A DNA stretch of 64,000 bases from Elusimicrobiota bacterium (GCA_035534315.1 DATLSD010000006.1:10839-74838), one strand, 5' to 3'. Shown: positions 919 through 47,796, numbered from the stretch's first letter. Notes: a model not told the origin generated them from the letters alone. Numbers and translations: made by a program.

Positions 919-3126
919 TCACTGCACCCCGGCCAGCCGCGCGTAGGCGCCGCCTTGCGCCTTTAACTCGTCGTGGGTGCCGCGCTCGACCGTCTTGCCG
1001 TCCTCGAGCACGATAATCTCATCGGCGTCGCGCACCGTGCTCAGACGGTGAGCGATAATGATGCAGGTGCATCCCCGGCGGCGCAGATTGTCGTCGATGA
1101 TTTTTTCCGTCACGGTATCCAAGGCGCTGGTGGCCTCGTCCAGGACCAGCACGCGCGGGTTCAAGACCAAAGCCCGCGCGATTTCCAGGCGCTGGCGCTG
1201 GCCGCCGCTCAAATTGGCGCCGCCCTCCTCCAAAACCGCGTCATAGCCGCCCGCGCGCGCGACGATGTCGTTATGGATGCAGGCATCCCGGGCAGCGGCG
1301 ACAATTTGATCCTCGGGCACGGTGTCATCCCAAAGGGTCAGGTTGTCGCGCACCGTGCCGGCAAAAAGCGCGATGTCCTGGTCCACGAAGGCCACCGAGT
1401 TGGCTAAAAGCGCGCGCGGCAGTTTCTCCCGCGGCACGCCGTCGAAAAGGATGTCGCCGCTCCAAGGCGGGTAAAGACCCGTGAGTATTTTTGAAATGGT
1501 GGATTTGCCGCAGCCGCTGGGCCCGACCAGCGCCACGCGGCTGCCGGGCTTAAGCGATAGGCTGAAGTCCTCAATGAGCGGCTCGGAAAGCCGTGAATAG
1601 CCGAAGGTCAGGCCGCGCAAGTCAACTTGACCCGAAAGTTTGGCCTGCGGCGGTTCGGCCTCAGAGCCTGTGGGCTCCGCCTCCGCCGAAGCCGCAGGAT
1701 CGGCCGGATAGGCCATGACGTCGTCCAGGCGGTTCATGTCGCCCTCGAATTCTTGGAACGTGCCCATGAGGTTGACGGTGCGATTGACCGGATCGATGAA
1801 GCTCGCCATGAGGCTCTGGAACGCGACCAAAAGGCCCAGCGTCATGTGCCCGCGCATGACGCTCAAGCCTCCGAAAGCCAGCACCGCGGCCGTGGCCAGG
1901 GCCTGCAAGAGCGGCGGAATCTGCAGGAAAGGCTGGGTGACCTCGTTCAACTGGAGAGTGTAGCTCACCAGCTTGGCCTGATAGCCGGCCCAGGTGGAGA
2001 AAAAATCCGACTCCCCCCCGGTCGCCTTCAGGGTCTCGATGGCCTGCAGGCCGCCCATGGAAACGCCCATGAGCTTGCCCTGCTCGCGCACCAGGCGCCG
2101 GTTTCCATCGACGCGCTTTCTTTGGATAGCGCGCGCGGCGGCGTAGTTGGCGCCCAAGGCTCCGATGGCGATCAATGTCAAAAGCGGGTTGATGGCGAAC
2201 ATCAGGGCCGCATAGAAGACGACCATGACCAGGTCAACCGCGGCCCCGGCCATGTCGGAGGCCATGATGTGGGCCAGGCGCTTGTTGATGGCCACGCGGT
2301 TGGCGATGTCGCCGCAGAAGCGCTGCGCGTAGAAGTCCACGGGCAGGCGCAGCACGTGCCAGAGAAATTTTCCGGAGCCCGAGACCGAGAGCTTGGTCTC
2401 CAGGCGGTTCAAGTAGTATTTCTGCAGCCAGGTAAGCGCCCCGCGCATGACGGCGGTGATGAGCATTCCCAGCAAGAGGGGCTTGATCCAGTCCGTCATC
2501 TGGAGCACGAGGTAATCGTCCACGAAGATGCGGATGAAGGTGGGGATGACCAGGCCCGGCACGACCAGGGCCAGGCCGGCGATGATGATGTAGGAAAGCG
2601 CCTCCTTGGAGGATTCCATGCGCTGGCGCAAGCCCGGCCACATGGATGGTTTCACGCCGCCCTTCTTGAACTCAGGGCCCGGCTTGAAGGCCAGCGTCAC
2701 GCCGGTGAAGGACTCGTCGAATTCCTCGTCTGAAACCGCGCGCGGGCCGACCGCCGGATCGGCGAGATGGACTACGCCCTTGCCGAAGCCCTCGACCACC
2801 AAGAAGTGGTTGAAGTTCCAGAACACGATGACCGGCAGGGCCATCTGCCGCAGTTCCTGCGGTTCTTTGCGGTAGCCCGTCGCTTCAAGCCCGTAGGCGC
2901 GCGCCGCGCGAAGGACGTTGCGGGCGTTGCTGCCGTCGCGGGAGACGCCGCAGGCCTTGCGCAGTTCCTCCAAGGGAACGTAGCGCCCGTAATAACCCAG
3001 CACCATGGCCAGGGACGCCGCCCCGCACTCGACCGCCTCCATCTGCAGGACGGTCGGCACGCGGGCCCGGCTCGGCCGCCCGAAAATCCGCGCGACCGGC
3101 TCAAGCAGGGATTTAGGAAGAGGCAC
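919..3126 (-). CDS. Bacteriocin/NHLP-type ABC transporter with N-terminal C39 peptidase domain, permease and ATPase
   Basis: 735 aa. C39 Cys motif (ECGAASLAMVLGYYG) sits at the N-terminus, a TM region in the middle, and Walker A GPSGCGKST plus LSGGQRQRLEIARAL at the C-terminus. Confidence 0.9.
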   Translation of the reverse strand: MPLPKSLLEPVARIFGRPSRARVPTVLQMEAVECGAASLAMVLGYYGRYVPLEELRKACGVSRDGSNARNVLRAARAYGLEATGYRKEPQELRQMALPVIVFWNFNHFLVVEGFGKGVVHLADPAVGPRAVSDEEFDESFTGVTLAFKPGPEFKKGGVKPSMWPGLRQRMESSKEALSYIIIAGLALVVPGLVIPTFIRIFVDDYLVLQMTDWIKPLLLGMLITAVMRGALTWLQKYYLNRLETKLSVSGSGKFLWHVLRLPVDFYAQRFCGDIANRVAINKRLAHIMASDMAGAAVDLVMVVFYAALMFAINPLLTLIAIGALGANYAAARAIQRKRVDGNRRLVREQGKLMGVSMGGLQAIETLKATGGESDFFSTWAGYQAKLVSYTLQLNEVTQPFLQIPPLLQALATAAVLAFGGLSVMRGHMTLGLLVAFQSLMASFIDPVNRTVNLMGTFQEFEGDMNRLDDVMAYPADPAASAEAEPTGSEAEPPQAKLSGQVDLRGLTFGYSRLSEPLIEDFSLSLKPGSRVALVGPSGCGKSTISKILTGLYPPWSGDILFDGVPREKLPRALLANSVAFVDQDIALFAGTVRDNLTLWDDTVPEDQIVAAARDACIHNDIVARAGGYDAVLEEGGANLSGGQRQRLEIARALVLNPRVLVLDEATSALDTVTEKIIDDNLRRRGCTCIIIAHRLSTVRDADEIIVLEDGKTVERGTHDELKAQGGAYARLAGVQ

Positions 3127-3133
3127 GTTGGGA

Positions 3134-4210
3134 TCAGAGCCCGAGCAGCGACTTCATCGCCGGGATGACCAAGGTGATGGGCCGGCGCTTCTTGACGATA
3201 ATGCGCACGTCGCACATCATGCCGGCCTTGATCTTCAGTTGGGGCCCCTCCGAGGAAGACCAGCGGTAGCCGCTGAAGTTGTTGGAATCCTTGTCCAGCG
3301 ATATCCTTAAAATGTAGGGAGCGCCGCCCGAAGTGAGCTCCTGGTCTAGAATGTTGTTGCGCGTAAGCTCGAAAATCATCTGTTCGCGCGCGGGAAATTC
3401 GGAGACGTAGTAGACTTGGCCCGTGAGATAGCCGTACTCTTCCTTCTTAATGATGCGCGGCGAAACCTCGGCGGCCATCCCGGGCTTGGCCTGGTTGCCC
3501 ACGCTGGGGATGAACGCGATGGCGTTGAGACTTTGCCCCTCATCGACGTAGGTCATAAGGAAGGCGCCCTTCTGGATGAGCGTTCCGGGCGAGGTCATGA
3601 CCTCGACGATGCGCCCGCTCTTGGGGGCAATGACATCGGTGGCCTCTTTAAGCTCCATGCCGTTTAGGGCCAGCTGGTTTTGCAGGGACTTGAGGCTGGT
3701 TTGCGCCCGGGCCAAGTTCTGCTTCGCGGTCTCAAGCACGTCGGGCGCGATGAGGCCGTCCTTGAGCGCCACCTGCATCGCGCGCACCTGCCGGTCCAGG
3801 CTGCGGATATGCTCCTGGGTCGCCGCGATGCTTTGGTTTATTTCGCCCGCGGAGCGCGCGCCCTTTTGCGCCATGCTGCTTTGATCCAAAGTCGCCACGA
3901 CCTCGTCCTTGGTGACCAAGTCCCCCTCGGCGACGAAAATCTGCTTGACGATGCCGGTCCCGGGCGAGTAGATATTGTCGACGCCTCGCGGCGGCATGAT
4001 GATGGCCGGACCCGAGATGGTGGTGGGGATGCTTCCCAGCACGGACCAAATGAGCGCCAAAACGATGAGGGCGCACAGCGTCCACAAGGCGTACCAGCCC
4101 TTGGGCGTGGTCACCTGCATCAGGTAGTCGAGCTGCTCGGGCGTGGAGAGCCGCTCCAAGGAAGCCTTTCGGAATATCTCTTGCTCGGCCATGGGGTTGA
4201 ATCTTAACAC
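3134..4210 (-). CDS. HlyD-family secretion adaptor of the bacteriocin export system
   Basis: 358 aa with an N-terminal TM and a long coiled-coil; 8 nt upstream of the ABC exporter. Confidence 0.8.
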   Translation of the reverse strand: MLRFNPMAEQEIFRKASLERLSTPEQLDYLMQVTTPKGWYALWTLCALIVLALIWSVLGSIPTTISGPAIIMPPRGVDNIYSPGTGIVKQIFVAEGDLVTKDEVVATLDQSSMAQKGARSAGEINQSIAATQEHIRSLDRQVRAMQVALKDGLIAPDVLETAKQNLARAQTSLKSLQNQLALNGMELKEATDVIAPKSGRIVEVMTSPGTLIQKGAFLMTYVDEGQSLNAIAFIPSVGNQAKPGMAAEVSPRIIKKEEYGYLTGQVYYVSEFPAREQMIFELTRNNILDQELTSGGAPYILRISLDKDSNNFSGYRWSSSEGPQLKIKAGMMCDVRIIVKKRRPITLVIPAMKSLLGL

Positions 4211-4226
4211 TCAATACGATGGGTAT

Positions 4227-7200
4227 TCAAGCGAACGCCTCGACTTCCGGCAGATCGTCAAGCAGGAACCGCGCGGCCGCGTAGCCGACGCCCGCCTGGC
4301 CCTGGAAAAAGCCGGGATTGGGCGGCCCCCCGTCAAAACCCAGGCGCAGCGCCCCGCGCCGGGCCCGGGAAACAACGCGCGCAATTTTATGCCGTGCTTG
4401 CCGCGTCAAAGCCTCGTCGCTCAGCGCCCGCGCGGCGCGCGCGAGGAAGAGAGCGGCTCCCGCCTCGCCGCAGCAGAGATGATCCACGGCAGGTTCGTCC
4501 GCGTAGCGCTCCACGGCCGCGGCGGCCCAGCGCGCGGCCCGCGAAAAATCGAGCCCCAAAATCCGGCCCGTTTCCAGCAAGCCGAGGCCGACGCCCGCCG
4601 CGCCGCCGCACCAGCTCAAGACAAAGCGCGGCTTGTCCCCCTGCCCGAAATCGCGCCAGTCCGGCCAGTTGCCCGCCTCGGCGTCGTAGCTCGAGGCGCA
4701 GAGCTCGGCCAGATCGCGGGAAATCTCCGCCCAAGGCCCGCCGCGCTTGCTCATCCGCGCGCAGACATAGGCCGCGCCCGCCGCGCCGTGGGCGAAACCC
4801 AACTCCGGCCGTTGCGCCCGGCCCGAGGCGATATCGTTGAACAGGCTCCGGCTCGCGGCGAGAAATTCATTTCCGATCTCTTCACGCCGCCTATCCAACT
4901 CCCCGGCCAAATCGGTCGGCGGGGCGCCGGGCAGCGCGTCGAGCGCCAAAAGCGCGCCGGGAATTCCTCCCAGCAAATCCGTCCGGCGCGCATCCTCCGA
5001 AGACAGATATTTGGGCGAAAGCGCCGCGGCCAACTGGGCCGCTTCCGCGATGAGTGATTCTTCTCCCAGGATTCGTCCGATGGCCGAAAGACCGTAGGAC
5101 AAGGACGCCGCTCCCGTGCCGATGCCCAGGCCCATGCCGCGCGTCAGCCGCTCCATGCCGTAGCGGCGCGAGTCCCGCGCGACCAGGCGCGCCGTGGCCA
5201 ACGCGACGCCGCGGGTCCGGGGATTTTTCCCCAGCTTATGGGCCGCGGCCAGAAAAAGCGCGATGCCCAGCGCGCCGTCGAAAAGCCGGCCGCCGACCGG
5301 GCCGTACTGCCAGTTGCGGGAACGCTCGTCGTAGCACATGGAGAGCCACCACGCCTCATCGCCCGCGGTCGTCAAGGCGCTTTCAAGCAAGTCGTCGGCC
5401 AGATTGAGAACAAAATCCTGCATGACGTCCGGATTAAAATCCTCCGCCGCCCCGGCTTCACCGCCTGGGACAAGCTTCGCCGGCGCCGCTTTCGGCGTGA
5501 AAAAGCTCGCGCGCAAAAACCGGCTCTGCCGGGCCAAGTCCGCCTCGTCAAGAGCGGCCAGGCGCTTGCGGACCAAATCAAGCGGCGCCTCGTTCATCAC
5601 CAGAATCCGCCGCCCGCCGCAAGACGCGTAATCATGGCCTGGCGCGGTTTTAAACACCGGGACATCTCGGCAAGACAGCGCCCGGATTTCCTCGACCGCG
5701 CTCAAGCCCAGGCTTTGCCGCTCCTTCTCGTCTTCCACGCCCGAAAGCGCGCGCCAGAGCGGCTCGAACACGAAGCCTTGGGCCGCGCCATCCTTGAGCG
5801 CGGCGGGCTCCAGCGATTTTTGCAGCATGTGCGCGTAAACGCGGGTGTTGCGCAGGATAAAGCGCGTCGGCAGGTTCTCAAGGGACTCAAGCGCGGCGGA
5901 AACGGCTCGGCGGAACTCCGGGCGAAGAGCCTGGCGGTAGGCCGCGGCGAAGCCCGATTCGATGTCGTCGAGGAAATCAGCCGCGGCGACGGGCCGGCCG
6001 TTTAAAAGCGGCTTGTTGGCGCTCGACTCGATCCTCACTCGGACCTTCGCCACGCGCATGCGGTCACGGTTAGCGAACTCCCATCGCAGAGCCTCCCCAG
6101 ATTCCTCCGCGCTTCCCCCCGCTAAGCCGCTCGACTCCAAAATCCGGCCGCCTCCCAAAAACTCGTAGCGCGGCAGAAGCGCCGTGCGCACCACCGATTC
6201 AAAGAAGAAGCGGTGCTGGGCCAAATTGGCCGCGTCGAAGGCGCCCTCTCCCAGGCGCGGCCGCGGGCAGCAGAGAGTCTCCAAATCAATCGGATAAGGG
6301 CCGGCTGCCGTCGCGACGATGTTTTCGTGGTGCAAATCCGAGGCGCCCAGCAGGTACATATGAAAAAGCAGCTCGCCCCCGGACCTGAAGTATTTCCGCA
6401 CTTGAGCCTCTTCCGTAAAATCAGCCCGGCGGGCGAACGCGCAATAACCGTAGCCGCCGCGGTCGAGCACGCGCAGACGGCCCAAGCCGGAGACAAAGCC
6501 CGCCGCGTCAAGCCTGTCCAAGTAGGCGCAAAACCACGCTTCGGCCGCCAAGGGCTTGGGCTTATAAAGGAAGCGTCCGCCGCCGTCCAATTCCAGCAGG
6601 GCCACGGTCTTGCCGCCCTCGTGCGGATCCGAAACGCCGAATTCAGCGCGCGAGATGCGCCTAAACATGTCACTTGCCGCGAAAATCTTGGCCAGTTCCG
6701 GCCAATCCTCGGCGAGACGGGAGACGAACAGGGCCGCGTTCCTGCGCCAATTTTCGAGCAGGACGGCCATGACGCGAAGGAGCGCCGGATATTCTTCGAA
6801 GAACGCGCGGAAGTCCTCCGCGAGGAATCGATGGACGAACGCGCGGAAAGCCGCGTCAGAGTCGGGATCGAAGCCGGAGAGTTCCGCGCCTTCGAGGCCG
6901 CGGAAGACGGCGAACTCGGCCGCCAGGCAATAAGCCGAAGCCCCGCAAAGGTTCCTGAGCAGATCGCGCCCGATATCTCTCCAAGCTTGCGGCGCCAGCG
7001 GTGCCTCCGGAACAGCCGCAGCGCAAGCGCCCTTGAGGCGTGCGAGCTCGTGCTCGGTTAGCGCCGACCAGACAGGGCCAAAAGGAATGTCCGCGCCGGG
7101 CAGGGCGGCCGCGTCTTGTTCCGCGTCCCTTTGCGGCTTTTCCCGACCGCACGAGAGAAAGTCGATAATGTCGACCGCGGCGGGAACCCAGCTCTCATCC

Positions 7201-7391
7201 GCGGGAGAAAAATCGCGAAACGTCTTGCGAAGCTCCAAAAGGCCGGGCGCCAGCGGATCGATGGCCGCGCGCCAAGCCTCTTCGTCAGCGCCGCTCGAGC
7301 CGCCGACGGAGAGCCGCTCGGACAAGGAGCGCGCCTTGGGCACGAGCGCCTGGACGAAGACCTCCGGCGGGGCCGCGGACGCCGTGCTCAC
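4227..7391 (-). CDS. Class II lanthipeptide synthetase (LanM; dehydratase plus LanC-like cyclase)
   Basis: 1054 aa. N-domain carries YKPKP and DLHHEN motifs. C-domain carries GFAHGAAG, SWCGGAAG (WCxG) and HLCCGEAG, a CCG motif rather than CHG, as in ProcM. Confidence 0.85.
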   Translation of the reverse strand: MSTASAAPPEVFVQALVPKARSLSERLSVGGSSGADEEAWRAAIDPLAPGLLELRKTFRDFSPADESWVPAAVDIIDFLSCGREKPQRDAEQDAAALPGADIPFGPVWSALTEHELARLKGACAAAVPEAPLAPQAWRDIGRDLLRNLCGASAYCLAAEFAVFRGLEGAELSGFDPDSDAAFRAFVHRFLAEDFRAFFEEYPALLRVMAVLLENWRRNAALFVSRLAEDWPELAKIFAASDMFRRISRAEFGVSDPHEGGKTVALLELDGGGRFLYKPKPLAAEAWFCAYLDRLDAAGFVSGLGRLRVLDRGGYGYCAFARRADFTEEAQVRKYFRSGGELLFHMYLLGASDLHHENIVATAAGPYPIDLETLCCPRPRLGEGAFDAANLAQHRFFFESVVRTALLPRYEFLGGGRILESSGLAGGSAEESGEALRWEFANRDRMRVAKVRVRIESSANKPLLNGRPVAAADFLDDIESGFAAAYRQALRPEFRRAVSAALESLENLPTRFILRNTRVYAHMLQKSLEPAALKDGAAQGFVFEPLWRALSGVEDEKERQSLGLSAVEEIRALSCRDVPVFKTAPGHDYASCGGRRILVMNEAPLDLVRKRLAALDEADLARQSRFLRASFFTPKAAPAKLVPGGEAGAAEDFNPDVMQDFVLNLADDLLESALTTAGDEAWWLSMCYDERSRNWQYGPVGGRLFDGALGIALFLAAAHKLGKNPRTRGVALATARLVARDSRRYGMERLTRGMGLGIGTGAASLSYGLSAIGRILGEESLIAEAAQLAAALSPKYLSSEDARRTDLLGGIPGALLALDALPGAPPTDLAGELDRRREEIGNEFLAASRSLFNDIASGRAQRPELGFAHGAAGAAYVCARMSKRGGPWAEISRDLAELCASSYDAEAGNWPDWRDFGQGDKPRFVLSWCGGAAGVGLGLLETGRILGLDFSRAARWAAAAVERYADEPAVDHLCCGEAGAALFLARAARALSDEALTRQARHKIARVVSRARRGALRLGFDGGPPNPGFFQGQAGVGYAAARFLLDDLPEVEAFA

Positions 7392-8119
7392 GGCCCTTCC
7401 CGCCGCAGCCGCCAGGCCTCGGGATCGCGCGCGATAGCGTCCAAAAAGGCGAGATGGTTCGTGTGGTTGACGAAATTAAAGCTCAGGGTGACGGAGGGTT
7501 CTAGGCTCTGCGCCGAGTGCACGCGGCCGGCGGGGATCAAGAGCACGTCGCCGGGCTCGAGTTCCACGTCTTCGCTTGCGGCCAGGCCCTCCGCTCCGGC
7601 CAGACCGCGCAGGCTCACGCGCTTGCGGCCGACGAGCTGCGCCAGCCAGGCGTGCGTGGAGAACAAATCCGCGTGCGGCAGGGTTTCGGTGCCCGCCGGG
7701 CCGATGAAAAGCCAGCCGAATTTGCGCAGGTACCAGCTCTTCTGCGCGGGCGCGCGGAAGTCGAGCAGCGTGCGGCAGAACTCGGGAAACGCGAAGTCTT
7801 TAAGAAGCTCGGGATGATCCGCGAAGGGAGAATACTGCAGGGTGTACCACCGAGGCTCCTCAGCCGGGCCGGCTCCGCTTAAAATCCAATCGATGAATTC
7901 GGCCAAGCGCATCTTCTTGCCGCGCTTGGTCGCGCCGATTTTATCGCCCACGACCACCTCGTCTTGTCCCAACCTTTCGCGCAGAAACTTCCAGTTCCAG
8001 CGCTCGAACGCCCTCCAGCGCTTGGCGTAGCCCTTGAAGAGCGCCGGAATGCCCGGCGCGGAGAGCAGAGAGCGCTCGGCTTCCTCGGCGGAAATTTCCT
8101 CGCTGAATATCCGGATCAT
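7388..8119 (-). CDS. JmjC/cupin-like Fe(II)/2-oxoglutarate-type oxygenase, a candidate peptide hydroxylase
   Basis: 243 aa. HxD (LPHAD) followed by a distal His (RVHSAQ) in a cupin-sized protein; 4-nt overlap with the lanM start. Confidence 0.55.
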   Translation of the reverse strand: MIRIFSEEISAEEAERSLLSAPGIPALFKGYAKRWRAFERWNWKFLRERLGQDEVVVGDKIGATKRGKKMRLAEFIDWILSGAGPAEEPRWYTLQYSPFADHPELLKDFAFPEFCRTLLDFRAPAQKSWYLRKFGWLFIGPAGTETLPHADLFSTHAWLAQLVGRKRVSLRGLAGAEGLAASEDVELEPGDVLLIPAGRVHSAQSLEPSVTLSFNFVNHTNHLAFLDAIARDPEAWRLRREGP

Positions 8120-9018
8120 GACGGCGCGCCGGAAGCGAAAGCCGAGCGGCGGCGGATGTCCGCGCTAAAGCGCTCCTTCAAGATGCCTGAAAGCCTTTCC
8201 AGCAGCCGATCGCAGAGGTCGCGCGGGGTATAACCGGAAATCCGCGAGAGGCTCACGCCGATGAACCGGCAGTCCATCTCCGTGTCCTTAAGCCACGCGC
8301 CGAAGCGCTCCATCCGGGCGAAGGCTTCCTCATCGGTGGCGGTGCGGCCCTCGCCGCGCCCGTCCGAGCGGCCGAAGACCAGCAAATGCTTGTTCTCCGG
8401 CGTGACGGAAGGGCTTACGGGAGCGCCGGGCGAAATGCGCAGAAGATGATACGGATTGTTCTTAAAGCGCTCGTACTCTTCCGCAGTGACCTCAAGAGCG
8501 ACGGGATCTCGCTCCGGAGTCAGATTGCAGGAGAAATAGTCCAAGCAGATATCGAGCGCTACGGGGTATTGCGGCCGGATGTCTGAAAGGTTCTTCACCC
8601 GCGCGAAGCGCGCCTGGGCGGCGTCGGGCTTGCCCTGGAGATCGGGCGGCAGCGGCCCCCTGGCCCAGACCATGGCCCGGCGCTGGGCGTCGGTGGTGAA
8701 AATGCAGACCGAGCCGTCGTAAGGCAGGGTGGCCTCGTGCTCGCGGTGCCACCACACCTCGCTGAAAAACCCGTGAAGCACGGCGGGCCAGATAAAATTC
8801 GCGATGTTGAGTTCCTTCAGGATGAAGGCGCGGGTTTCTTCGAGACCGGCGCCCGGTTCCAGCATCGGGCCCTGCAGCGTCGGGAGATCCATGTCCGAGT
8901 GCTCGTCGATATGGACCAGCGAACTGCCGCGGGCGGGAAGAACGCCCTTGGCCGCGGCTTCCTTCCAAAAATAAAACGCCTCGTGGTGTTCCTCAAAAAC
9001 GACGCAGGGGACGGGCAT
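8116..9018 (-). CDS. Hypothetical tailoring protein, possibly UPF0489-like (arginase/deacetylase-related fold)
   Basis: 300 aa. The N-terminal PVPCVVFEEHHEAFYFW motif is reminiscent of the UPF0489 family, from memory only. Translationally coupled on both sides. Confidence 0.3.
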   Translation of the reverse strand: MPVPCVVFEEHHEAFYFWKEAAAKGVLPARGSSLVHIDEHSDMDLPTLQGPMLEPGAGLEETRAFILKELNIANFIWPAVLHGFFSEVWWHREHEATLPYDGSVCIFTTDAQRRAMVWARGPLPPDLQGKPDAAQARFARVKNLSDIRPQYPVALDICLDYFSCNLTPERDPVALEVTAEEYERFKNNPYHLLRISPGAPVSPSVTPENKHLLVFGRSDGRGEGRTATDEEAFARMERFGAWLKDTEMDCRFIGVSLSRISGYTPRDLCDRLLERLSGILKERFSADIRRRSAFASGAPS

Positions 9019-9953
9019 CAGCTCCGCGCGGAGGCCAGCGGAACTTCAAGCCCGCGCAAGGTCCAGGTCTTGTCCAGACAGGGCACCAGGTGCTTGTTTA
9101 ATGAGCGCAGCCACTCCGGATACTCCAAGGGGACGTCGAACTCCGCGCAGCTGGGCGCGCCTTCCTTCAGAAACATCTCGTAGTGCGCGTTCATGGCCGC
9201 GCGCAACAGCAGGACCGCGGCGGCGCGGTGGCGCGCGGCGAAGGCCGGATCGACCCAGAACTTGGTGTAGTAAAGAGTATCGGGCTTCTCAGCGAAGCGA
9301 TGGGTCGCGAACCAGCCCTTAGCCTCGCCCCCCGAGAACAGCATCTGGCTCGTCGACCAGTCGATTTCATTCTCACGAAAGCGCACGCTTAGATGCGCGG
9401 GCGCCCCGGCGCGCGAACCCCGCTCGATGGGGTCGAGCCCCTCGGCGCGGGCCTTGGTCCAGGAAATCACGCGCCAATCGGCGGCCGCGGACTCGCCGGC
9501 GCCCTTGGCCCAGCGCGGAATATTCGCGATGCGGCTCTGGCCGAAGAAAATGCGCGTAAAGGGCGTCCCGCAGCCGGCGCGAACGATGGTTTTTTCGACG
9601 GCCTCAAGCCCCGAAATGCGGCTGCCATAATTGACGGAGAGGCGCTCGAGTCCTGGCCGGCGCGAAAGCTCTTCTATTAGGCGGCGCAAAAGCGCGGCGC
9701 CAAGCCCTTGCCGCCGCCGCCCGGGCAGGACATAGACCGAGAGCAGCTCGGCCTTGCGCTCCGCGGGTTCGAGCCTCGCCAGCGCGAGCCCCTCCGGCTC
9801 CCCGCCCAATCCGAGCGCGGCCGCGGCCAGCCAAGAAAATTCCTTCCTTGCGACGCCCTGGGCGAAAGAAGGGTAGGTGAAACCGGCCCAAGGCGAAAAA
9901 TCCGTCCCGGGCCCCAAGGTGGAAAGCTGTCCGGAATTTAAAATGGCGGTCAT
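9018..9953 (-). CDS. GNAT-family N-acetyltransferase
   Basis: 311 aa with GNAT motif A (RRRQGLGAALLRRLIEE); 1-nt overlap with the next gene. Confidence 0.6.
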   Translation of the reverse strand: MTAILNSGQLSTLGPGTDFSPWAGFTYPSFAQGVARKEFSWLAAAALGLGGEPEGLALARLEPAERKAELLSVYVLPGRRRQGLGAALLRRLIEELSRRPGLERLSVNYGSRISGLEAVEKTIVRAGCGTPFTRIFFGQSRIANIPRWAKGAGESAAADWRVISWTKARAEGLDPIERGSRAGAPAHLSVRFRENEIDWSTSQMLFSGGEAKGWFATHRFAEKPDTLYYTKFWVDPAFAARHRAAAVLLLRAAMNAHYEMFLKEGAPSCAEFDVPLEYPEWLRSLNKHLVPCLDKTWTLRGLEVPLASARS

Positions 9954-10048
9954 AACGTGGCGTTGGATTTAAGAACCCTAAGCTTCGGGGCACGGGAGAA
10001 TGGCCCCGCGCCCCGAAGCGATGCCGTCGTGGATTTGGTCGGCCGAAA

Positions 10049-10366
10049 CTACATGCTCATCATGACGCAGGCCGAGGAGCCGCCGCAGGTCGCGCCGCAG
10101 CGTCCGCCGCCGGCGACTTTCTCGAGCTCGCTGTCGGAAAGCTCGCCGCCCGTCTTGACCAGATCGGGCACCACGACCACCAAGTCGGCGCCGTTGCGCG
10201 CCACGGCCTTGATGTTGAAGCCTTGAGGAAGGTCCTTGCCGGAGACCTCCTTGACCGCCTTGACCGGATCCTTGAGCGCCAGCTCGCGGAACTTCGCGTC
10301 CGTCGAAGCCTTGCGCGAAAATGCCTCCAAGGCCTTTTTCTGCTCGTCTTGTGTCCAGGGTTTCAT
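10049..10366 (-). CDS. NHLP-leader lanthipeptide precursor A (core GRCGATCGGSSACVMMSM)
   Basis: 105 aa. The leader matches the nitrile-hydratase-leader pattern (FRELALKDP...ELSDSELEKVAGG). The core has 3 Cys and several Ser/Thr, and an AGGAGA RBS is present. Confidence 0.85.
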   Translation of the reverse strand: MKPWTQDEQKKALEAFSRKASTDAKFRELALKDPVKAVKEVSGKDLPQGFNIKAVARNGADLVVVVPDLVKTGGELSDSELEKVAGGGRCGATCGGSSACVMMSM

Positions 10367-10431
10367 CGTTTTCTCCTTGAATAATCTAAACGGCTCTTCG
10401 TCTTCGTTTAATTGATGCGAGAGCGCGCCCT

Positions 10432-10794
10432 TTAGACGCAGGCGCCGCCCACGCCCGGCACGTACGTTGGTCCCGGAGGCACCGTGGACGAAACTAGGCA
10501 GACCTGGCTGATGCCGCAGCTTCCCGCGCAGCGGCCGCCCGCGACCTTCTCAAGCTCGCTGTCGGAAAGCTCGCCGCCCGTCTTGACCAGATCGGGAACC
10601 ACGAGCACCATGTCCACGCCGTCCCGCGCCACGGCAGCAAGCTTGAAGTCCGGCGGCAGCTCCTTGCCGGAGACTTCCTTGACCGCCTTGGCCGGGTCCT
10701 TAAGCGCCAGTTCCCGGAACTTCGCGTCCGTCGAGGCCTTGCGCGCGAACGCCTCCAAGGCCTTTTTCTTCTCGTCCTGAGTCCAAGGTTTCAT
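10432..10794 (-). CDS. NHLP-leader lanthipeptide precursor B (core RCAGSCGISQVCLVSSTVPPGPTYVPGVGGACV)
   Basis: An internal start (MKPWTQDEKKK) lies inside the 249-aa track ORF, giving 120 aa. The leader is about 90% identical to precursor A, and a GGAG RBS sits upstream of the ATG at 10794. Confidence 0.85.
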   Translation of the reverse strand: MKPWTQDEKKKALEAFARKASTDAKFRELALKDPAKAVKEVSGKELPPDFKLAAVARDGVDMVLVVPDLVKTGGELSDSELEKVAGGRCAGSCGISQVCLVSSTVPPGPTYVPGVGGACV

Positions 10795-10804
10795 TGATTT
10801 CTCC

Positions 10805-11509
10805 TTAATCCAAGCGCAGCTTAAAATTGTCCGGCAGGCTCCGGCCCAGCACCTCGGCGGCCGCCGCCCGCGGATTCGACATGAATTTCTCGCGAAAACC
10901 GGGTTGGGAGGCGGCGCGCTTGGCGACGGCGCGGCGGAGGCACGCCAGTTCAAACTCGCTTGGAAGCGGCGCGGCGGGGAATGCCTCCCCCTCGCCAAAT
11001 CGCGCGACGCGTTCGGCCAGAATTTCGCGCCAGAACTCGCGCGCGGACTGGAGATTATCGGCGAAACTTTGGGAAAAAGCCGGGGCCGGAATTTTTTCGG
11101 CGCCTTCGCCCAACAGCGAGTTGAAATGGGCAAGCCCTTCTCGAAGCCTTTTCGATTCCGCCGCGTCCGCCCGCCCGTCAAGCCTTCTCGCGTCGAAAGC
11201 GGCGCACCGGGCTTGGGCTCCGGGCGTGAAAATGGGAGTAAAGCGTCCGCGCGCGGCGGAAATTTCCATCAAGTCGAACAGGAATTCTCCGCTTGAAACG
11301 CGCAAAAGTCGGTGGCGCCGGATAAAGACGCCGCTGTCGGCGTCGCGGCGCGCTAAAAATAGGTCGAGCCGGCCCTCAAGAACCAGCCACGCCCGGCCTT
11401 CGGATCCGCACTGCACGTAGGGGACGCCGGCGGGAAGTTCCTGTCCGATGTCCTCGATTCTCGACGGCGTGGCCTCGGACGCTCCAATCATCGGAGGGGA
11501 TGTTATCAT
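10805..11509 (-). CDS. Hypothetical protein: cNMP-binding-like N-domain fused to a C-terminal NHLP-leader-like segment with no core
   Basis: 234 aa. The N-terminus (VQCGSEGRAWLVLEGRLDLFLA) resembles the N-terminus of the partial gene at 1..911. The C-terminus (FREKFMSNPRAAAAEVLGRSLPDNFKL) aligns with the precursor leaders. Confidence 0.5.
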   Translation of the reverse strand: MITSPPMIGASEATPSRIEDIGQELPAGVPYVQCGSEGRAWLVLEGRLDLFLARRDADSGVFIRRHRLLRVSSGEFLFDLMEISAARGRFTPIFTPGAQARCAAFDARRLDGRADAAESKRLREGLAHFNSLLGEGAEKIPAPAFSQSFADNLQSAREFWREILAERVARFGEGEAFPAAPLPSEFELACLRRAVAKRAASQPGFREKFMSNPRAAAAEVLGRSLPDNFKLRLD

Positions 11510-11525
11510 ATTCCTAAAATAAGAT

Positions 11526-12554
11526 TTAGCGGCCGAAAAAGGCCCAGGCCGCGGCCGCGTTGCACAGCAAATAGGCCGCCGGATAAAGCGCGCGGGAGAA
11601 GGACCGGATGCGCGCCGCGGCTTTCGCGGAGCGACCGTCCGCGACGCGGTGAACGATGACGATTTCCACGATAGTAACGGCGGAAAAGACGAAGCCGATG
11701 AGGAAAAAAGCGTCGATATAGGTCAAGTACGGCAGGTGCGGCAGGCTGCCTGAAATCACGAAGAGAAAGGCGATCATGGTCAGGGCGGCGCTCAGGGCCA
11801 CGGAGAACTGGGCGGCCGTGTCGGTTTCCTTAATCCAAAGAGCGCAATAAGAAACGATGACCATGATAAAGAGCGGCAGAAAGACTTTCCAGATGTAGTA
11901 GCCGTAGCGCCGCTTGATGACCATGTTGAAGTCGATTTCCGGGATGCTGCCGCCCTTGCCGCCCAAGACTGACTCGGCCGGCACGGCCCGCATTCCCAAC
12001 ATTTTCCATTGCGCCAAGAGGGCCCAGGGCTGGCTGTTGATGCCGGTCTGTCCCGCATCAGGGACAAGCGCAACCGCATCCCGCTCATCCAAGAACGGTT
12101 GAAGCACCACGGGCAGGACCTGCTCGTCAAATGGAAAACGGTGGAAGGTCATCTGCATGGTCAGGTCGTCCTCGAAATCTTCCCAGAAAACAACCGTGCC
12201 GTCGGGATGCCGGCGGATGTTGGTTCCCAGCTTGAAGAGCCCGTTGACCGCGTTAGCCATGACGATGTTGGGCGTCCAAATTTTTTCCGGGTCGCACAGC
12301 CGGTCCGTGTCCTTGGCGCCGCGCGGCGCATACTTAAGACGGGAATCTTTCCATTGTTCGTAGAGATAGCCGCGGACGCGGAAGGTTTCCCCGACCTCGT
12401 CCACGCCGACCAAGTCGGTCACGTAGACGCCCACCTTGACCGGCACCCGCCCGTTTCTGCCCGGCGGCGGCGCGATAGAGGCGGCCGAGGAAGGCCGCAG
12501 GCTCAGGCCCAAGGATAAAATCAGGAACAACGCCGGGATTCTCGCGCGCCTCAT
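11526..12554 (-). CDS. Prokaryotic pentameric ligand-gated ion channel (Cys-loop receptor family homolog)
   Basis: A signal peptide from internal Met MRRARIPALF precedes the ligand-binding-domain pattern VKVGVYVTDLVGVDEVGETFRVRGYLYEQWKDSRLKY. There are four C-terminal TM helices. The track ORF (to 12806) carries an implausible N-extension. Confidence 0.7.
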   Translation of the reverse strand: MRRARIPALFLILSLGLSLRPSSAASIAPPPGRNGRVPVKVGVYVTDLVGVDEVGETFRVRGYLYEQWKDSRLKYAPRGAKDTDRLCDPEKIWTPNIVMANAVNGLFKLGTNIRRHPDGTVVFWEDFEDDLTMQMTFHRFPFDEQVLPVVLQPFLDERDAVALVPDAGQTGINSQPWALLAQWKMLGMRAVPAESVLGGKGGSIPEIDFNMVIKRRYGYYIWKVFLPLFIMVIVSYCALWIKETDTAAQFSVALSAALTMIAFLFVISGSLPHLPYLTYIDAFFLIGFVFSAVTIVEIVIVHRVADGRSAKAAARIRSFSRALYPAAYLLCNAAAAWAFFGR

Positions 12555-12776
12555 CAAGCGGAGATTATATCCTAAAAATGCTATCGTGATCGTGATGTTC
12601 GTCCTTTTGTTGCACCGGAGCCGCCCATGAAAAAGCAGTGCGTCGCGATGACGTCCGTCACCACCTACTCCGCCGCCCACCGGTGTCTCAAGGGCGCCGA
12701 CGCCCCCAAAAGCGGCCGTCGCCGGCTCTGCGCCCATCACCGCGCCCAAGCCGTCCGCGCCGGAAGCAGGTAAGTT

Positions 12777-13688
12777 TTGGCCAAACGGGAACTGCCCCGC
12801 TGGCAAGCCTTTCCGCTTGTCGCCCTGCTAAGCGCCCTTGGGCTCTTCGCTTCGGCCCTGCCGCGGCGCCTTGAAGTTTCCCTGGCCCGCACCCTGGGCC
12901 GGCTGGTGTTCCAGGCCCGGCTTTTCAAGCGCCGGGTGGTGGAATCCAACGTCAAGCGCTGCCTGCCGAAACTCAGCTTCGCCGAACGCCGCAGGCTCAT
13001 TCGGAACAACTACGAGCACTACGGGCTTCTCCTCTTCGAGTACATGCATTTTTTCTCCCCCTTCAAGGGCCACTGGCGTCGCTACGTTCCCACCGTCGCG
13101 CGCATGGAAGGCTTCGAACATTGGGAAAAGGCCCACGCGCGCGGCCGCGGCGTGATTTTCTTCTGCTCGCACCTGGGCTCCTGGGAAGCGGGAGCGGCCT
13201 CCATCGCCTTAAGCGGCGTCGAGGCCACCATCGTGACCACGGTCTTGACCCCGCGCTGGCTGCACGACAAGATCACGGCCTGCCGCGATTCGGTGGGCAT
13301 GAAGGCGGCTTATCACCCGGGCTCCATGCCCGCGGTGCTCAAAACCCTGCGCCGCGGCGGCTCGGTCGCCTTCATGAACGATCAGTACGCCGCGCCGCCC
13401 ATGGGCCTGCCGGCGGTTTTCTTCGGAACCAGCGTGGATACCTTAGCGGTCGTCGGGCCCCTGGCGCGACGGACCGGCGCGGCCGTGCTGCCGCTGCACA
13501 CCTTCCGCGCCGCCGACGGCATGACCACGGCCGTCATCGAGCCTGAATTAGAATTGGGCGACGCCTTGGACGACGCCTCGGCCGCGACCCAGCGCGTGGC
13601 CAGCCGTGTGGAATCCTGGGTGCGCGCCAACCCGGAACATTGGCTCTGGATGCACCGCCGGTTCAAGAACGTCGCGCCCGCGGCCTAA
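12777..13688 (+). CDS. Lipid A biosynthesis (LpxL/HtrB-like) lysophospholipid acyltransferase
   Basis: 303 aa with an N-terminal TM and the general LpxL-family layout. Confidence 0.65.
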   Translation: MAKRELPRWQAFPLVALLSALGLFASALPRRLEVSLARTLGRLVFQARLFKRRVVESNVKRCLPKLSFAERRRLIRNNYEHYGLLLFEYMHFFSPFKGHWRRYVPTVARMEGFEHWEKAHARGRGVIFFCSHLGSWEAGAASIALSGVEATIVTTVLTPRWLHDKITACRDSVGMKAAYHPGSMPAVLKTLRRGGSVAFMNDQYAAPPMGLPAVFFGTSVDTLAVVGPLARRTGAAVLPLHTFRAADGMTTAVIEPELELGDALDDASAATQRVASRVESWVRANPEHWLWMHRRFKNVAPAA

Positions 13689-13706: not shown

Positions 13707-14391
<685 letters not shown>

Positions 14392-14402
<11 letters not shown>

Positions 14403-17064
14403 CCGGCTCTCCCAGCGGCAGCGAAAATTTAAAAGAAGCGCCGCCTCCTTCGCGGCTCTCGGCCCAGATGCGCCCGCCGTGCGCGTTCAAGACCGCCCGG
14501 CAGATCGCCAGGCCCAAGCCGGCGCCCTTCGAGCCCTTGGCGTGATAGAATTTTTCAAAAACTTTTTCGAGGTCCTCGGGCGGGACGCCCGGCCCGCGGT
14601 CGGCCACCTCGACGATCAAGCGATCTTTTTCGGCCCGCGCGGTGACGGCGATGGGTGTTCCCTCGGGGGTGTGCCGCGCCGCGTTCTCCAGGAGGTTCAT
14701 GAAAACCTGCTCGATGAGCACGCCGTCCATCGGAACCAGCGGCAGGTCGGGAGGCACGCTGGTCGTTATCTCCCGGCGCGCGAGCATCGCCTCAAGGCGC
14801 CCCAGGGCCGAGCCGGCGATCTCCTCGATGGAGCCGGGCTCCTTGCGCAGCGCCACCGCGCCCGTTTCAAGGCGCGTGGTCTCGATGAGATTGGCGACCA
14901 AACGCGCCAGCCACTGGCCCTCCTCGATGACATTCTCCACGAGCTCGCGAGCCTTGTGCGTCAGCGGAGCGCCCGCATCCTGAAGCAGGCTCGTGGCCGA
15001 GCCGATGATGGCGGCTAAAGGCGTGCGCAAATCATGCGAAACTGACGAGAGCAGGGAACTGCGCAATCGCTCGGTCTCGGCGTCGATTTGCGACTGGCGC
15101 GCGCTTTCCTGGAGACGATCGACCTCGAGTGCCAGGCCGATTTGATGAGCGAAGGATTCCAGGAGCAGCATCTGATCGGGAATCAAAAGACGCTCCCGCG
15201 AGTGCGGCTGGACGCGGAGCACGCCCACGGGCCCCTCCGCGCCGGTCAAGGGCGCGTAGAGCGCGTTGACCACGGGCAGGGTCTGCGTGCCCAGTCCGGC
15301 CGACTGCCCCAGATCAAACACCCACTGCGCGACGCTGCGCTCCTTTTCATCGAGTTCCCGCTTGGCGCCCGAGGCGCTGCGGACTTCCAGAGCCCCCCGT
15401 TCCCCTTGCATGAGCGCGATGATGTCGCTGTCGAAAACCTCCGCGACATGGCGCGCCGCCACATCCAAAATAGCCTGCACGCCGCGCGTGCCGGCGAGCT
15501 CGCGGCTCAGGGAGTGCATCGCGGCCGTACGCATCTCTCCCAGGCGCGCCGACTCGGCCTGGGCTTGGATGCGCACGGTCAGCCCCGAGATGAAGAGCGC
15601 CACCGCCGCCATGACGACGAAGGTCACCAGGTAATCCCCGCTGCTCACGCTGAATGTAAAGCGCGGAGGCACGAAGAAGAAGTCGAAGCAGAGCACGGCC
15701 AGGATGGAGTAGAGCGCCGCGGGGCGGCGATGCCCGCGGGAAGCCACCAGCACGGCGCCGGCCAGGTAGAGCATGATGAGATCGGTCAGCGCCAAGTACG
15801 GGGAGACGAGAAAATCCAAGAGAGTGACCGCGGCCGCGGCGCCCGCCGCGACTACGTATTCCCACGGCGGCGTTTCCGGCTTCTTGGCCAATGCGGACGG
15901 AGCCGGTTCGGCGGCCGGGCCCTCTCCGCGGATGACGTAGACGTCGATGTCTCCGCTTTTCTGCACCAATTGATCGACGATGCTGCCGCGCAAGATCTCC
16001 TTCCAGCGCTGCCGCGCGCTCTTTCCTACCACGAGCTTGGTGACGTTGCGCTGCCGGGCCAAATCCAGCATGCCCTCGACCACGTCGCGTGTCGTCAGCG
16101 TGAGGGTCTGGGCGCCTAATTGTCCGGCCAAGCGCAGATTGTCGATGGCGCTGCTGCGCGCCGTCTCGGAGAGCCGCTGGGCCTGGGAATCAACGAAGAC
16201 GGCCAGCCACTCGGCGTGAAGGCCCGCGGCCATGCGCCGGGTTGCGCGGACGAGCTTCGCGGAACTGGGCCCGGGACCGACCGCGACCAGAAGCCGTTCG
16301 CGCGTGGGCCAGATGGCCTCGGGGGCTTGGCGGCGGCGGTAGGATTCCACCACAGCGGCCACGCCCTCGGCCGTGGCGCGCAGGGAGAGCTCGCGCAGCG
16401 CGGACAAATTGGACATCTTGAAGAAGCTCTGCACCGCGCGTTCGGCCATGTCGGGGACGTAGACCTTGCCCTCCTTCAAGCGATCCAAAAGCTCCTCGGG
16501 CGGCAAGTCGACCAGCTCGACGTCGGCGCGCTCCAAGACGGAGTCCGGCACGGTCTCGCGCACGATGACGCCCGTAATGCGCGCGACGATGTCGTTCAAG
16601 GTCTCCAAATGCTGGATGTTGAGAGTCGTGTAGACGTCGATGCCGCGATCCAGAAGCTCCAACACGTCTTGCCAGCGTTTGGAATGGCGGCTTCCCGGAG
16701 CGTTGGTATGCGCGAGTTCATCGACGAGAAGAAGCCCGGGCCTGCGCGCCAGGGCCGCGTCGATGTCGAAATCGTAGAGCTTGATGCCCCGGTGTTCGCC
16801 GACGCGGCGGGGTAGGACTTCCAGACCGTCGAGCAGTTCCCGGGTCTCGCGGCGGCCATGGGTCTCCGCCAGGCCCACGGCCACGTCCTCGCCATCGTTT
16901 TTCTTGATGCGCGCCGCCTGGAGCATGGCGTAGGTCTTGCCCACGCCGGGCGCGGCGCCGAGGAAAATCTTAAGCCTGCCGCCGACGCCGCGGGTCTCGT
17001 CCTGGCGCGCCTCGGGCAGGAAGGCTTCGGGTTCCGGGCGTTTTCGCTCTCTGGGCATTTTCAT
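14392..17064 (-). CDS. kdpD: Sensor histidine kinase KdpD
   Basis: 890 aa. An N-terminal KdpD/P-loop domain (GAAPGVGKTYAML) is followed by USP and TM regions, a GAF domain, the HisKA motif (SHDLRTPL) and an HATPase domain. Confidence 0.9.
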
Positions 17065-17114
17065 CTACTTAAATAACATGTTTGCGCCACCGACGCAATG
17101 AGACGGGGGCGAGA

Positions 17115-17732
17115 TCATCTTCCTCGGGCCCGGCGGGAAGATCGGATCATCCGCCGCAAGCTTTCGTTGAGCATCAGGACGTTGACCCGCGGTTCTCCGA
17201 AAATTCCCAGCGCGCGGCCTTGAACGCGCTTGAGAACGAGGGCGCGCACGGCCGCTTCGGAGATTCCATAGCGCCGGACGGCGGCCGCCACGCGCGGCAG
17301 CTGCCAGAGGGCCGCGGCCGGGCTGATGTCGGGATCAAGCCCGCTGCCCGAGGCGGTCACGAGCTCCGGCGGAATGGGCGCCGCGTTACCGGGCTCGGAG
17401 GCGCGCAGGGCGCCGACACGGGCTTGGACGCTTTGAAGCAGCGCGGGGTTGGTCGGACCGAGATTCGAGCCCGAGGAAGACGCCGCGTTGTAGGGAAACG
17501 GCGTCGTCGCCGAGGGGCGGCTCCAGAAGTACATGGGACTTGAGAACGACTGGCCGATAAGCTCCGAGCCCGCGACCTTGCCGTCTTGGACGATGAGGCT
17601 GCCGTTGGCCTGCCAAGGAAACAGGAACTGGGCCAGGCCGGTCACCAGAGCCGGATAAGCGAGTCCGGTCAGGATGGAGAAGGCCGCGAACATCAGCGCC
17701 GCCGGCCGGAGTTGGCTGAGAAGTGTTTTCAT
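17115..17732 (-). CDS. kdpC: Potassium-transporting ATPase subunit C
   Basis: 205 aa with a single N-terminal TM; sits between kdpB and kdpD. Confidence 0.9.
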   Translation of the reverse strand: MKTLLSQLRPAALMFAAFSILTGLAYPALVTGLAQFLFPWQANGSLIVQDGKVAGSELIGQSFSSPMYFWSRPSATTPFPYNAASSSGSNLGPTNPALLQSVQARVGALRASEPGNAAPIPPELVTASGSGLDPDISPAAALWQLPRVAAAVRRYGISEAAVRALVLKRVQGRALGIFGEPRVNVLMLNESLRRMIRSSRRARGR

Positions 17733-17744
17733 GTCGATTCCTCG

Positions 17745-19817
<2,073 letters not shown>

Positions 19818-19818
19818 T

Positions 19819-46804: not shown

Positions 46805-46827
46805 GACTTCGCGCGCGATCAGGAGCG

Positions 46828-47766: not shown

Positions 47767-47796
47767 CCTGTTATTATACGTGTTATGACGGGAACG

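Follow-up and report, generated by a model that had tools for sequence, protein, structure and literature searches.

Gene content and organization of the locus

The 64,000-nucleotide (nt) stretch of DNA analyzed here, hereafter the window, comes from an uncultured Elusimicrobiota bacterium (GCA_035534315.1 DATLSD010000006.1:10839-74838) and carries at its left end a gene cluster in which two precursor peptides with NHLP-type leaders are encoded together with a class II lanthipeptide synthetase (LanM), further tailoring enzymes and an exporter. Listing and translation of open reading frames (ORFs) revealed an uninterrupted row of 11 ORFs on the minus strand, running from position 12554 to position 1 (Table 1). 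The original prediction for this DNA, an NHLP-leader class II (LanM) lanthipeptide operon with extra tailoring and an NHLP-type three-gene exporter, was borne out by the ORFs and by hidden Markov model matches: all of the profiles named beforehand (TIGR03793, LanM/DUF4135 and TIGR03794/03796) gave hits, that to TIGR03793 falling below its cut-off. The cluster had also been described as complete, but its last gene, which encodes the second ABC subunit (ABC2), runs past the left edge of the window, and the proposed start at position 919 omits the fragment 1-911.

From the first gene to ABC2, the ORFs are separated by 16, 10, 65, 95, -1, -4, -4, 16, 7 and 7 nt, so that the predicted spacing of mostly 0-17 nt or overlapping genes was correct with two exceptions (65 and 95 nt). 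The genes for the GNAT-family enzyme, the arginase, the JmjC enzyme and LanM form one translational unit through overlapping start and stop codons (-1, -4 and -4).

Table 1. Features of the lanthipeptide cluster in the window, in the direction of transcription
Feature	Position	Strand	Remarks
GLIC-like pentameric ligand-gated ion channel (pLGIC)	11526..12554	-	342 aa; first gene of the row
234-aa accessory protein P234	10805..11509	-	ABC2-N-domain-like module, linker and leader-like module
Precursor A2	10432..10794	-	120 aa; NHLP-type leader and long core
Precursor A1	10049..10366	-	105 aa; NHLP-type leader and short core
RNA hairpin, 16-bp GC-rich	9982..10019	-	between the A1 stop codon and the GNAT gene
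Tandem-repeat GNAT, predicted N-acyltransferase ('N' enzyme)	9018..9953	-	311 aa; PF00583
Peptide arginase ('R' enzyme)	8116..9018	-	300 aa; PF12640
JmjC/cupin Fe(II)-2-oxoglutarate hydroxylase, predicted ornithine C-hydroxylase ('I' enzyme)	7388..8119	-	243 aa; PF13621/PF08007
Class II lanthipeptide synthetase LanM	4227..7391	-	1054 aa; TIGR03897
HlyD-type membrane-fusion protein of the NHLP export system	3134..4210	-	TIGR03794
ABC exporter with N-terminal C39 double-glycine peptidase	919..3126	-	TIGR03796
Second, peptidase-less ABC subunit (ABC2), N-terminal 303 codons	1..911	-	TIGR03797 type; cut by the window edge

Precursor peptides and a conserved pair of cores

The leaders of both precursors end in ...EKVAGG, followed in A2 by a long core of 33 amino acids (aa), RCAGSCGISQVCLVSSTVPPGPTYVPGVGGACV, with one Arg, four Cys, six Ser/Thr and no Lys, Asp or Glu, and in A1 by a short core of 18 aa, GRCGATCGGSSACVMMSM, with one Arg, three Cys and four Ser/Thr. 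The Arg is the sole basic residue of each core, located at position 2 in A1 (GRCGATC...) and position 1 in A2 (RCAGSC...), and in both precursors it is followed by a C-x-x-S/T motif (R2 and C3-x-x-T6 in A1). Searches with the NHLP leader model TIGR03793 retrieved both peptides (A1, 44.8 bits, E=8.5e-12; A2, 41.7 bits, E=8e-11, model positions 2-77 of 77). An AAGGAG ribosome-binding site precedes the ATG of both precursors, at a distance of 7 nt in A2.

Several of the relatives (loci with L numbers below) were retrieved by a genome-wide scan with the arginase alignment, from which the best 80 of 112 loci were kept, and by subsequent local profile searches. The closest other locus, in 'Elusimicrobia bacterium clean11' (L001/L003), has the same eleven genes in the same order, with proteins 55-92% identical, and the same clade also includes the metagenome contigs L083, L087, L088 and L084. 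An identical protein of 228 aa is annotated in an Elusimicrobiota metagenome-assembled genome (MAG). Genes for a GNAT, an arginase, a JmjC hydroxylase, LanM and NHLP precursors were also found together in MAGs of Caulobacteraceae (L005), Vicinamibacteria (L006/L010) and Nisaea (L037) and in an unassigned contig (L002), while the likewise unassigned contig L089 carries the enzyme set without the JmjC hydroxylase. Two core types, a short RC(G/A)x(S/T)C...C(V/A)M(M/T) and a long RC(A/P)xSC...SSTV...PGVGG.C., co-occur in all those loci except Nisaea; both are kept in L003, L083/87, L084, L005, L006/10 and L089, and the pair of long and short RCxxSC cores is found across several phyla. Searches of the selidamide and peptide-arginase literature returned no characterized member of this RC-core subgroup, and we know of none.

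Among these relatives, L002 (L002:1-17231; Logan SRR31012008) is larger, with two adjacent GNATs, a luciferase-like monooxygenase, an S41 peptidase, a methyltransferase, pyruvyl-transferase-like and glycosyltransferase-like genes and a separate JmjC gene, which suggests that its RC-core peptides are more heavily decorated.

In the gap between A1 and the GNAT gene, the transcript is predicted to form a hairpin 30 nt past the A1 stop codon. The intergenic region has a minimum free energy of -43.1 kcal/mol (z=-3.9), and none of 200 shuffled sequences folded equally well. L003 (z=-2.9) and L083 (z=-5.0) have equivalent hairpins of unlike sequence at this point; none was seen in the more distant L084 and L089. 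The stem has no canonical U-tract and was not called by a terminator scan, and it is likely to be an attenuator or an mRNA-stabilizing stem that sets the ratio of precursor to enzyme transcripts or modulates read-through into the enzyme genes.

Lanthipeptide synthetase and exporter

Assignment to class II is based on a LanM that has both dehydratase and LanC-like domains with zinc ligands, together with cores that contain three or four Cys and four to six Ser/Thr. The synthetase matched TIGR03897 with 568 bits (cut-off 304), DUF4135 with 299 bits and LANC_like with 123 bits, and the LicM2 structure 6ST5 with E=3e-57. Its motifs include DLHHEN at residue 352, IDLE at 368, AHG at 867, WCGG at 927 and LCCG at 972, the CCG of the last aligning with CHG of LicM2. 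We take this Cys-Cys-Gly zinc-site motif to be ProcM-like.

The adjacent genes encode the three components of an NHLP-type exporter (TIGR03794/03796/03797), all of which passed the respective cut-offs, the third by way of its L003 orthologue. The HlyD-type protein scored 267 bits with TIGR03794 (cut-off 156), and its start is probably the ATG at 4192, giving a protein of 352 aa like its orthologues. The C39-ABC protein scored 1097.6 bits with TIGR03796 (cut-off 853) and 126 bits with Peptidase_C39. The ABC2 fragment 1-911 scored 47.6 bits with TIGR03797, compared with 883 bits for the full-length orthologue in L003 (cut-off 709); ABC2 orthologues in the relatives are 905-917 aa long.

Tailoring enzymes

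The tailoring genes have a characterized counterpart in the pha cluster of Pseudophaeobacter arcticus DSM 23566, a single operon (phaA-N-R-I-M with a peptidase-containing exporter) that produces phaeornamide, a member of the selidamide family (Hubrich 2022, PMC8784127). Selidamides are ribosomal lipopeptides (PMC8784127). In this pathway, core Arg2 is turned into ornithine by PhaR and then into 4-(S)-hydroxy-ornithine by PhaI (PF08007). PhaN, the GNAT, transfers (S)-3-hydroxydecanoyl onto the delta-amine, and PhaM forms a methyllanthionine between Cys4 and Thr7; acylation was arginase-dependent and hydroxylation was observed on ornithine alone (PMC8784127). The enzyme combination is not new, as the pha cluster has the same set in the same order. 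Nor is a non-cyanobacterial host remarkable in itself, as NHLP/Nif11 clusters have already been reported in >20 phyla (PMC8784127).

The product of 8116..9018, previously considered a possible deacylase, is by its sequence a peptide arginase with a variant active site. It matched PF12640 (62 bits, gathering threshold 27), the crystal structure of OspR (8BRP, E=1e-33) and NF052474, the FlmR/OhkR subfamily. In peptide arginases, the motifs EEH(N/H)EAF, DXHXD and LDIDLDYFSC supply six Mn ligands, and Asp165 of OspR bridges both Mn ions (PMC10028609). Here the first two motifs are intact (EEHHEAF and DEHSD), whereas the third reads LDICLDYFSC, so that Cys158 (codon 8545-8547) stands at the position of OspR Asp165. 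Five of the six metal ligands are kept (Glu10/His11, Asp38, His40, Asp42 and Asp160). A Cys occupies the bridging-ligand column in 13 of 120 arginase family members (~11%), and the variant (LDICLDYF / LGVCLDFF) also occurs in the Caulobacteraceae (L005), Nisaea (L037) and L089 clusters, but not in the ksp, Flm, Ohk or Vicinamibacteria arginases. In the peptide-arginase literature searched, we found no mention of such an Asp-to-Cys variant. Since intact A-N-R-(I)-M clusters from several lineages share this Cys, a functional variant is favoured over decay, and we read the Cys158 enzyme as putatively functional.

The JmjC/cupin enzyme matched PF13621 (Cupin_8, 62.6 bits) and PF08007 (JmjC_2, 29.6 bits). 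Its best solved relatives are JMJD5 and JMJD6 (E about 1e-9), with whose HxD...H triad its H149-x-D151...H201 aligns, and it is 41% identical to its counterpart in the A-N-R-I-M locus of Nisaea. With an arginase in the same row, the hydroxylase and the GNAT are best read as acting in the way described for phaeornamide.

If Cys158 had instead rendered the arginase inactive or repurposed, the Arg would persist, the JmjC enzyme could hydroxylate arginine directly, as in JMJD5 and YcfD, and the GNAT could act on another amine such as the new N-terminus. The substitution at the OspR Asp165 position is in line with this scenario, and so is the fact that, among solved structures, the hydroxylase is most closely related to arginyl and lysyl hydroxylases. 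We nevertheless consider it very unlikely: the arginase keeps the other five ligands and, apart from this residue, all three motifs; the Cys is shared by the 13 of 120 family members, by intact A-N-R-(I)-M clusters in three or more lineages (Elusimicrobiota, Caulobacteraceae and Nisaea) and by L089; the arginase gene is translationally coupled to its neighbours; and hydroxylation in the pha pathway was observed only once ornithine had been formed. A hydroxamate-siderophore reading, in which N5-hydroxy-N5-acetyl-ornithine would be formed, was rejected, as JmjC/2-oxoglutarate enzymes hydroxylate carbon, PhaI gives 4-hydroxy-ornithine and the row contains no flavin N-monooxygenase.

The GNAT matched PF00583 (Acetyltransf_1) with 45 bits, in its N-terminal half only, and had no significant relative by sequence among solved structures. 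Its AlphaFold2 model (predicted local distance difference test, pLDDT, 94.4) is of the tandem GNAT type, and the top structure matches in the PDB are MshD and MAB_4324. A word-indexed search gave six relatives; an exhaustive search was needed to reveal a family of 524 representatives, of which the best 150 listed are mostly ~300 aa long. Two GNAT relatives picked independently of the arginase both adjoin NHLP-type precursors, and one of them lies in a precursor-GNAT-arginase-LanM cluster. The CoA-loop motif R80-x-x-G83 is conserved. A Kamptonema MAG (L013), identified as carrying the ksp cluster by the core RRRGGSSRVITNTPGVPGCN (four Arg and a T11-C19-N20 pattern as published), provided a characterized point of comparison: BLASTP aligned the GNAT with the KspN orthologue over 269 aa (26% identity, E=4e-21), and the arginase and LanM with their L013 counterparts at 31% (E=2e-45) and 28% identity (E=5e-95), respectively.

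As regards the acyl group, a rival reading that follows the original prediction is a class II lanthipeptide that bears no lipid, with hydroxylation and N-acetylation as separate modifications and acetyl-CoA as the donor for the GNAT. The Pfam name of the GNAT domain is indeed acetyltransferase, acetyl-CoA is used by the proteins with the closest solved folds (MshD, the clavulanate tandem GNAT and VipF), NpuN transfers acetyl in vitro, and NCBIfam and Pfam searches found no gene for fatty-acid activation in the row. However, the three characterized RiPP (peptide made by the ribosome and modified after translation) GNATs of the ~300-aa family all transfer C10-C16 acyl groups drawn from primary metabolism, with no dedicated lipid gene (PMC8784127, PMC13647313). 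This RiPP GNAT family provides the only significant full-length relatives of the enzyme, and the arginase would supply it with a side-chain amine, as in ksp and pha. Moreover, selidamide GNATs acylate the most N-terminal ornithine or lysine (PMC13647313), a rule that the single N-terminal Arg of each core fits. An acetylated, lipid-free product is therefore unlikely in our view, and transfer of a fatty acyl group appears more likely than that of acetyl. Of the extra modifications proposed earlier, the tailoring enzymes are present, while free-standing hydroxylation and acetylation give way to a phaeornamide-type path. Conversion of Arg to ornithine changes the mass by -42.022 Da and acetylation by +42.011 Da; acetyl-ornithine is thus nearly isobaric with arginine, which confounds the +42 Da readout suggested for acetylation.

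An LpxL-type acyltransferase gene (12777-13688) was considered as a lipid supplier and rejected, as it lies on the opposite strand and is not beside the cluster in L001/L003. Other GNAT-associated NHLP precursors in our data set have cores with runs of 11-15 glycines (L011:6089-6799 and L090:3993-4574).

Proposed biosynthetic pathway

The locus is probably an operon for selidamides of the phaeornamide (pha) subtype, in which arginine would be converted to ornithine, hydroxy-ornithine and finally N-acyl-hydroxy-ornithine in peptides that also receive thioether rings, are cleaved after Gly-Gly and are exported. The gene identities, the gene order, the active-site motifs and the conservation of the cluster and cores in relatives were all directly observed. 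From homology to ksp and pha we infer in what order the reactions run, where hydroxylation takes place, which acyl chain is attached and how the rings are arranged. The two NHLP-leader precursors would be translated from their strong ribosome-binding sites, and the arginase would hydrolyse the only core Arg (position 2 in A1 and position 1 in A2) to ornithine. The Fe(II)/2-oxoglutarate-dependent JmjC enzyme would then hydroxylate the ornithine on carbon, and the tandem GNAT would acylate its delta-amine, most likely with a medium- or long-chain fatty acyl group from primary metabolism. In parallel, the ProcM-like LanM would dehydrate Ser/Thr residues and form up to three (A1) or four (A2) thioether rings, probably including a small C-x-x-S/T ring beside the lipid anchor, as in phaeornamide. 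Finally, the C39-ABC/ABC2/HlyD machinery would cleave after Gly-Gly and export the products, which by analogy are likely to be two lipo-lanthipeptides with a fatty-acylated hydroxy-ornithine.

Several observations weigh against this assignment. Both precursors score below the trusted cut-off of TIGR03793 (50.9), although their E-values and the full model coverage make the homology to NHLP leaders clear in our judgement. The arginase scores 178 bits with NF052474, below the curated cut-off of 350, and lacks a literature-defined metal ligand at Cys158; FlmR and OhkR, after which that subfamily is named, act on another precursor class, of the DD(I/V)LF type. The identity of the GNAT to the KspN orthologue is low (26%), its fold model is silent on the preference between acetyl and fatty acyl chains, and NpuN also takes acetyl-CoA in vitro (PMC13647313). 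The likeness to pha rests on the published description and the Nisaea locus rather than on direct alignment with the Pha proteins: P. arcticus was not returned among the best 80 of the 112 loci of the arginase scan, and a plasmid collection gave no match. Lastly, no product has been observed for any member of the RC-core clade.

An ion channel and a coreless leader-like protein upstream of the precursors

The first gene of the row encodes a pLGIC with matches to PF02931 (Neur_chan_LBD, 79.5 bits) and PF02932 (Neur_chan_memb, 38.4 bits), both above threshold, as well as a signal peptide, four transmembrane helices and a short M3-M4 loop. It aligns end-to-end with the Gloeobacter proton-gated channel GLIC (E=3e-43). 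Between the channel and the precursors lies P234, in which a beta-rich N-terminal domain is followed by a helical linker and then by a C-terminal segment that resembles an NHLP leader and lacks a core peptide. No Pfam match to P234 was obtained, even at E up to 10. Residues 39-131 matched a profile of 22 ABC2 N-terminal regions (25 bits, E=1e-9 in a search of two targets) and residues 192-232 matched TIGR03793 (21 bits), the C-terminal 60 residues being a shortened, coreless NHLP leader. Outside P234 orthologues, the best match to this C-terminal module (45 bits, compared with at most 30 for true precursors) was a free-standing 75-aa ORF in L089. This coreless, NHLP-leader-like ORF (L089:3176-3403; Logan SRR29243434) overlaps the ABC2 stop codon and precedes three RC-core precursors. 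By these matches, P234 is apparently a fusion of two modules native to NHLP systems. Its only two relatives, one retrieved from a search of 5.8 billion proteins and the other from a metagenome scan, are in the same position in L003 (55-57% identity) and L088 (78% identity). The AlphaFold2 model of P234 is of low confidence (pLDDT 61.6) and its Foldseek matches to CRP/cyclic-nucleotide (cNMP) domains have E-values of 0.01 or worse, so that a cNMP-like fold is a hint only and was not adopted.

A scan of positions 9800-13000 for promoters and terminators gave nothing above chance. With gaps of 16 and 10 nt, a promoter would not fit before the precursors, which are therefore probably co-transcribed with the channel and P234. 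A perfect TATAAT was noted 12 nt 5' of the channel ATG (within 12555-12600), with no Shine-Dalgarno sequence; the consensus scan called no promoter there, and such a placement would imply a nearly leaderless transcript for the channel gene.

The channel is directly upstream of the cluster in all three loci of the Elusimicrobiota clade whose upstream side is known (the window, L001/L003 and L088), and the flank of L001/L003 beyond it is a GreA/ThiF/porin block, with synteny breaking exactly at the channel. Both genes thus appear to be co-transcribed with the cluster and to travel with it in the clade. The related clusters from other phyla (Caulobacteraceae, Vicinamibacteria, Nisaea and L002) lack both genes, so that any role in the system would be specific to the clade. 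A functional cluster that begins at A2, with the channel and P234 adjacent only through the close kinship of the three genomes, has, in our estimation, somewhat less than an even chance of being correct. In addition to the absence from other phyla, the three loci are a narrow phylogenetic sample (protein identity 78-97%) and the searched literature contained no link between a pLGIC and a RiPP cluster. Against mere adjacency stand the probable co-transcription across such short gaps, the differing flank of L001/L003 (GreA and ThiF block) with its synteny ending exactly at the channel, and the two modules of P234, both of which belong to NHLP systems and the second of which recurs as the L089 ORF.

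As for function, a role of the channel in sensing or immunity and of P234 in leader mimicry is a guess. We regard as doubtful the full combination, in which the channel would be a sensor or immunity device, P234 would act on the maturases or the exporter as a tuning leader mimic, and the long and short peptides would be a two-component lipo-lanthipeptide made by a single LanM. Were this to hold, the pathway would be the first among RiPPs to combine a dedicated pentameric ligand-gated channel with a natural leader-like protein that acts in trans.

Genomic surroundings

A ThiS-ThiF-rhodanese fusion gene and a phosphate-type porin gene lie beside the channel in L001 (2085-6411) and ~32 kb away in the window (44940-49092), where Kdp, Dab and glycoside-hydrolase genes separate them from the channel. 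This displacement suggests that a large insertion or rearrangement took place beside the cluster. The Kdp potassium-uptake locus (13707-21585) is on the same strand as the cluster and comprises KdpE, KdpD, a P-type ATPase (probably KdpB) and KdpA; its proteins share 94-95% identity with their counterparts in the sister contig L088, compared with 82-86% for the less conserved tailoring enzymes. Positions 25348-30930 encode a DabA-type inorganic-carbon transporter subunit (764 bits) followed by two ORFs with overlapping ends and partial Proton_antipo_M matches, which could be two antiporter-like genes or one frameshifted gene; the G+C content of the region is 70%, and its T-over-A skew is strong (-0.365). 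Near the right end of the window, positions 60633-62408 encode a B12-binding radical SAM protein.

Significance

Selidamides correspond, on the ribosomal side, to non-ribosomal lipopeptide drugs, and only three of their pathways have been characterized. The biosynthetic logic of the present locus is already known, and the locus is probably a further member of the selidamide family; what is unusual is the core pair, the Cys-variant arginase, the GLIC-like channel, the coreless-leader fusion protein and the Elusimicrobiota host. Together with its relatives, it defines a cross-phylum, uncharacterized subgroup with conserved RCxxSC cores and a single predicted acylation site, which would supply new enzymes for site-specific peptide lipidation as well as lipo-lanthipeptide scaffolds. 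The peptide arginase, with its natural Asp-to-Cys change in the metal site, is a further resource, and the clade links a RiPP operon, a GLIC-like channel and a coreless leader-like protein in a way that is unexplained and testable. In addition, the Elusimicrobiota, which have almost no natural-product record, are found to carry such a pathway.

Comparison with known systems

Landornamide biosynthesis (osp) shares an arginase of the same family (PF12640; OspR, 8BRP, E=1e-33) that acts on an NHLP-type precursor. In landornamide, however, ornithines are the end product and not a handle for acylation, there is no GNAT, and OspR has the canonical Asp165. With the prochlorosin (ProcM) systems, the locus has in common the NHLP/Nif11 leaders, one promiscuous CCG-motif LanM for more than one precursor and the TIGR03794/03796/03797 exporter (Haft 2010), whereas prochlorosins have no arginase, hydroxylase or GNAT, and here just two precursors adjoin the enzymes.

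The ksp cluster, which makes kamptornamide in Kamptonema sp. PCC 6506 and is represented in our data set by L013, likewise combines an NHLP precursor, a peptide arginase, a GNAT of ~300 aa and LanM, with Orn1 acylated. It differs in having no hydroxylase or exporter, several Arg per core, another gene order and Asp at the arginase ligand position. In L013 (11062-18356), we observed five NHLP precursors with RRR-starting cores, compared with the single co-localized KspA of the published description.

The closest parallel is with the pha cluster, which shares an NHLP precursor with a Gly-Gly site, the order precursor-GNAT-arginase-hydroxylase (PF08007)-LanM and a peptidase-containing exporter. 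The layout of the A1 core (R2, C3-x-x-T6) parallels the hydroxy-Orn2 and the Cys4-Thr7 ring of phaeornamide. On the other hand, there are two precursors of two conserved core types here compared with one in pha, three to four possible rings, owing to more Cys and Ser/Thr, compared with one in phaeornamide, and an Elusimicrobiota host compared with an alphaproteobacterium, and the locus adds the upstream GLIC-like channel, the fusion protein and a Cys at the metal-ligand position of the arginase.

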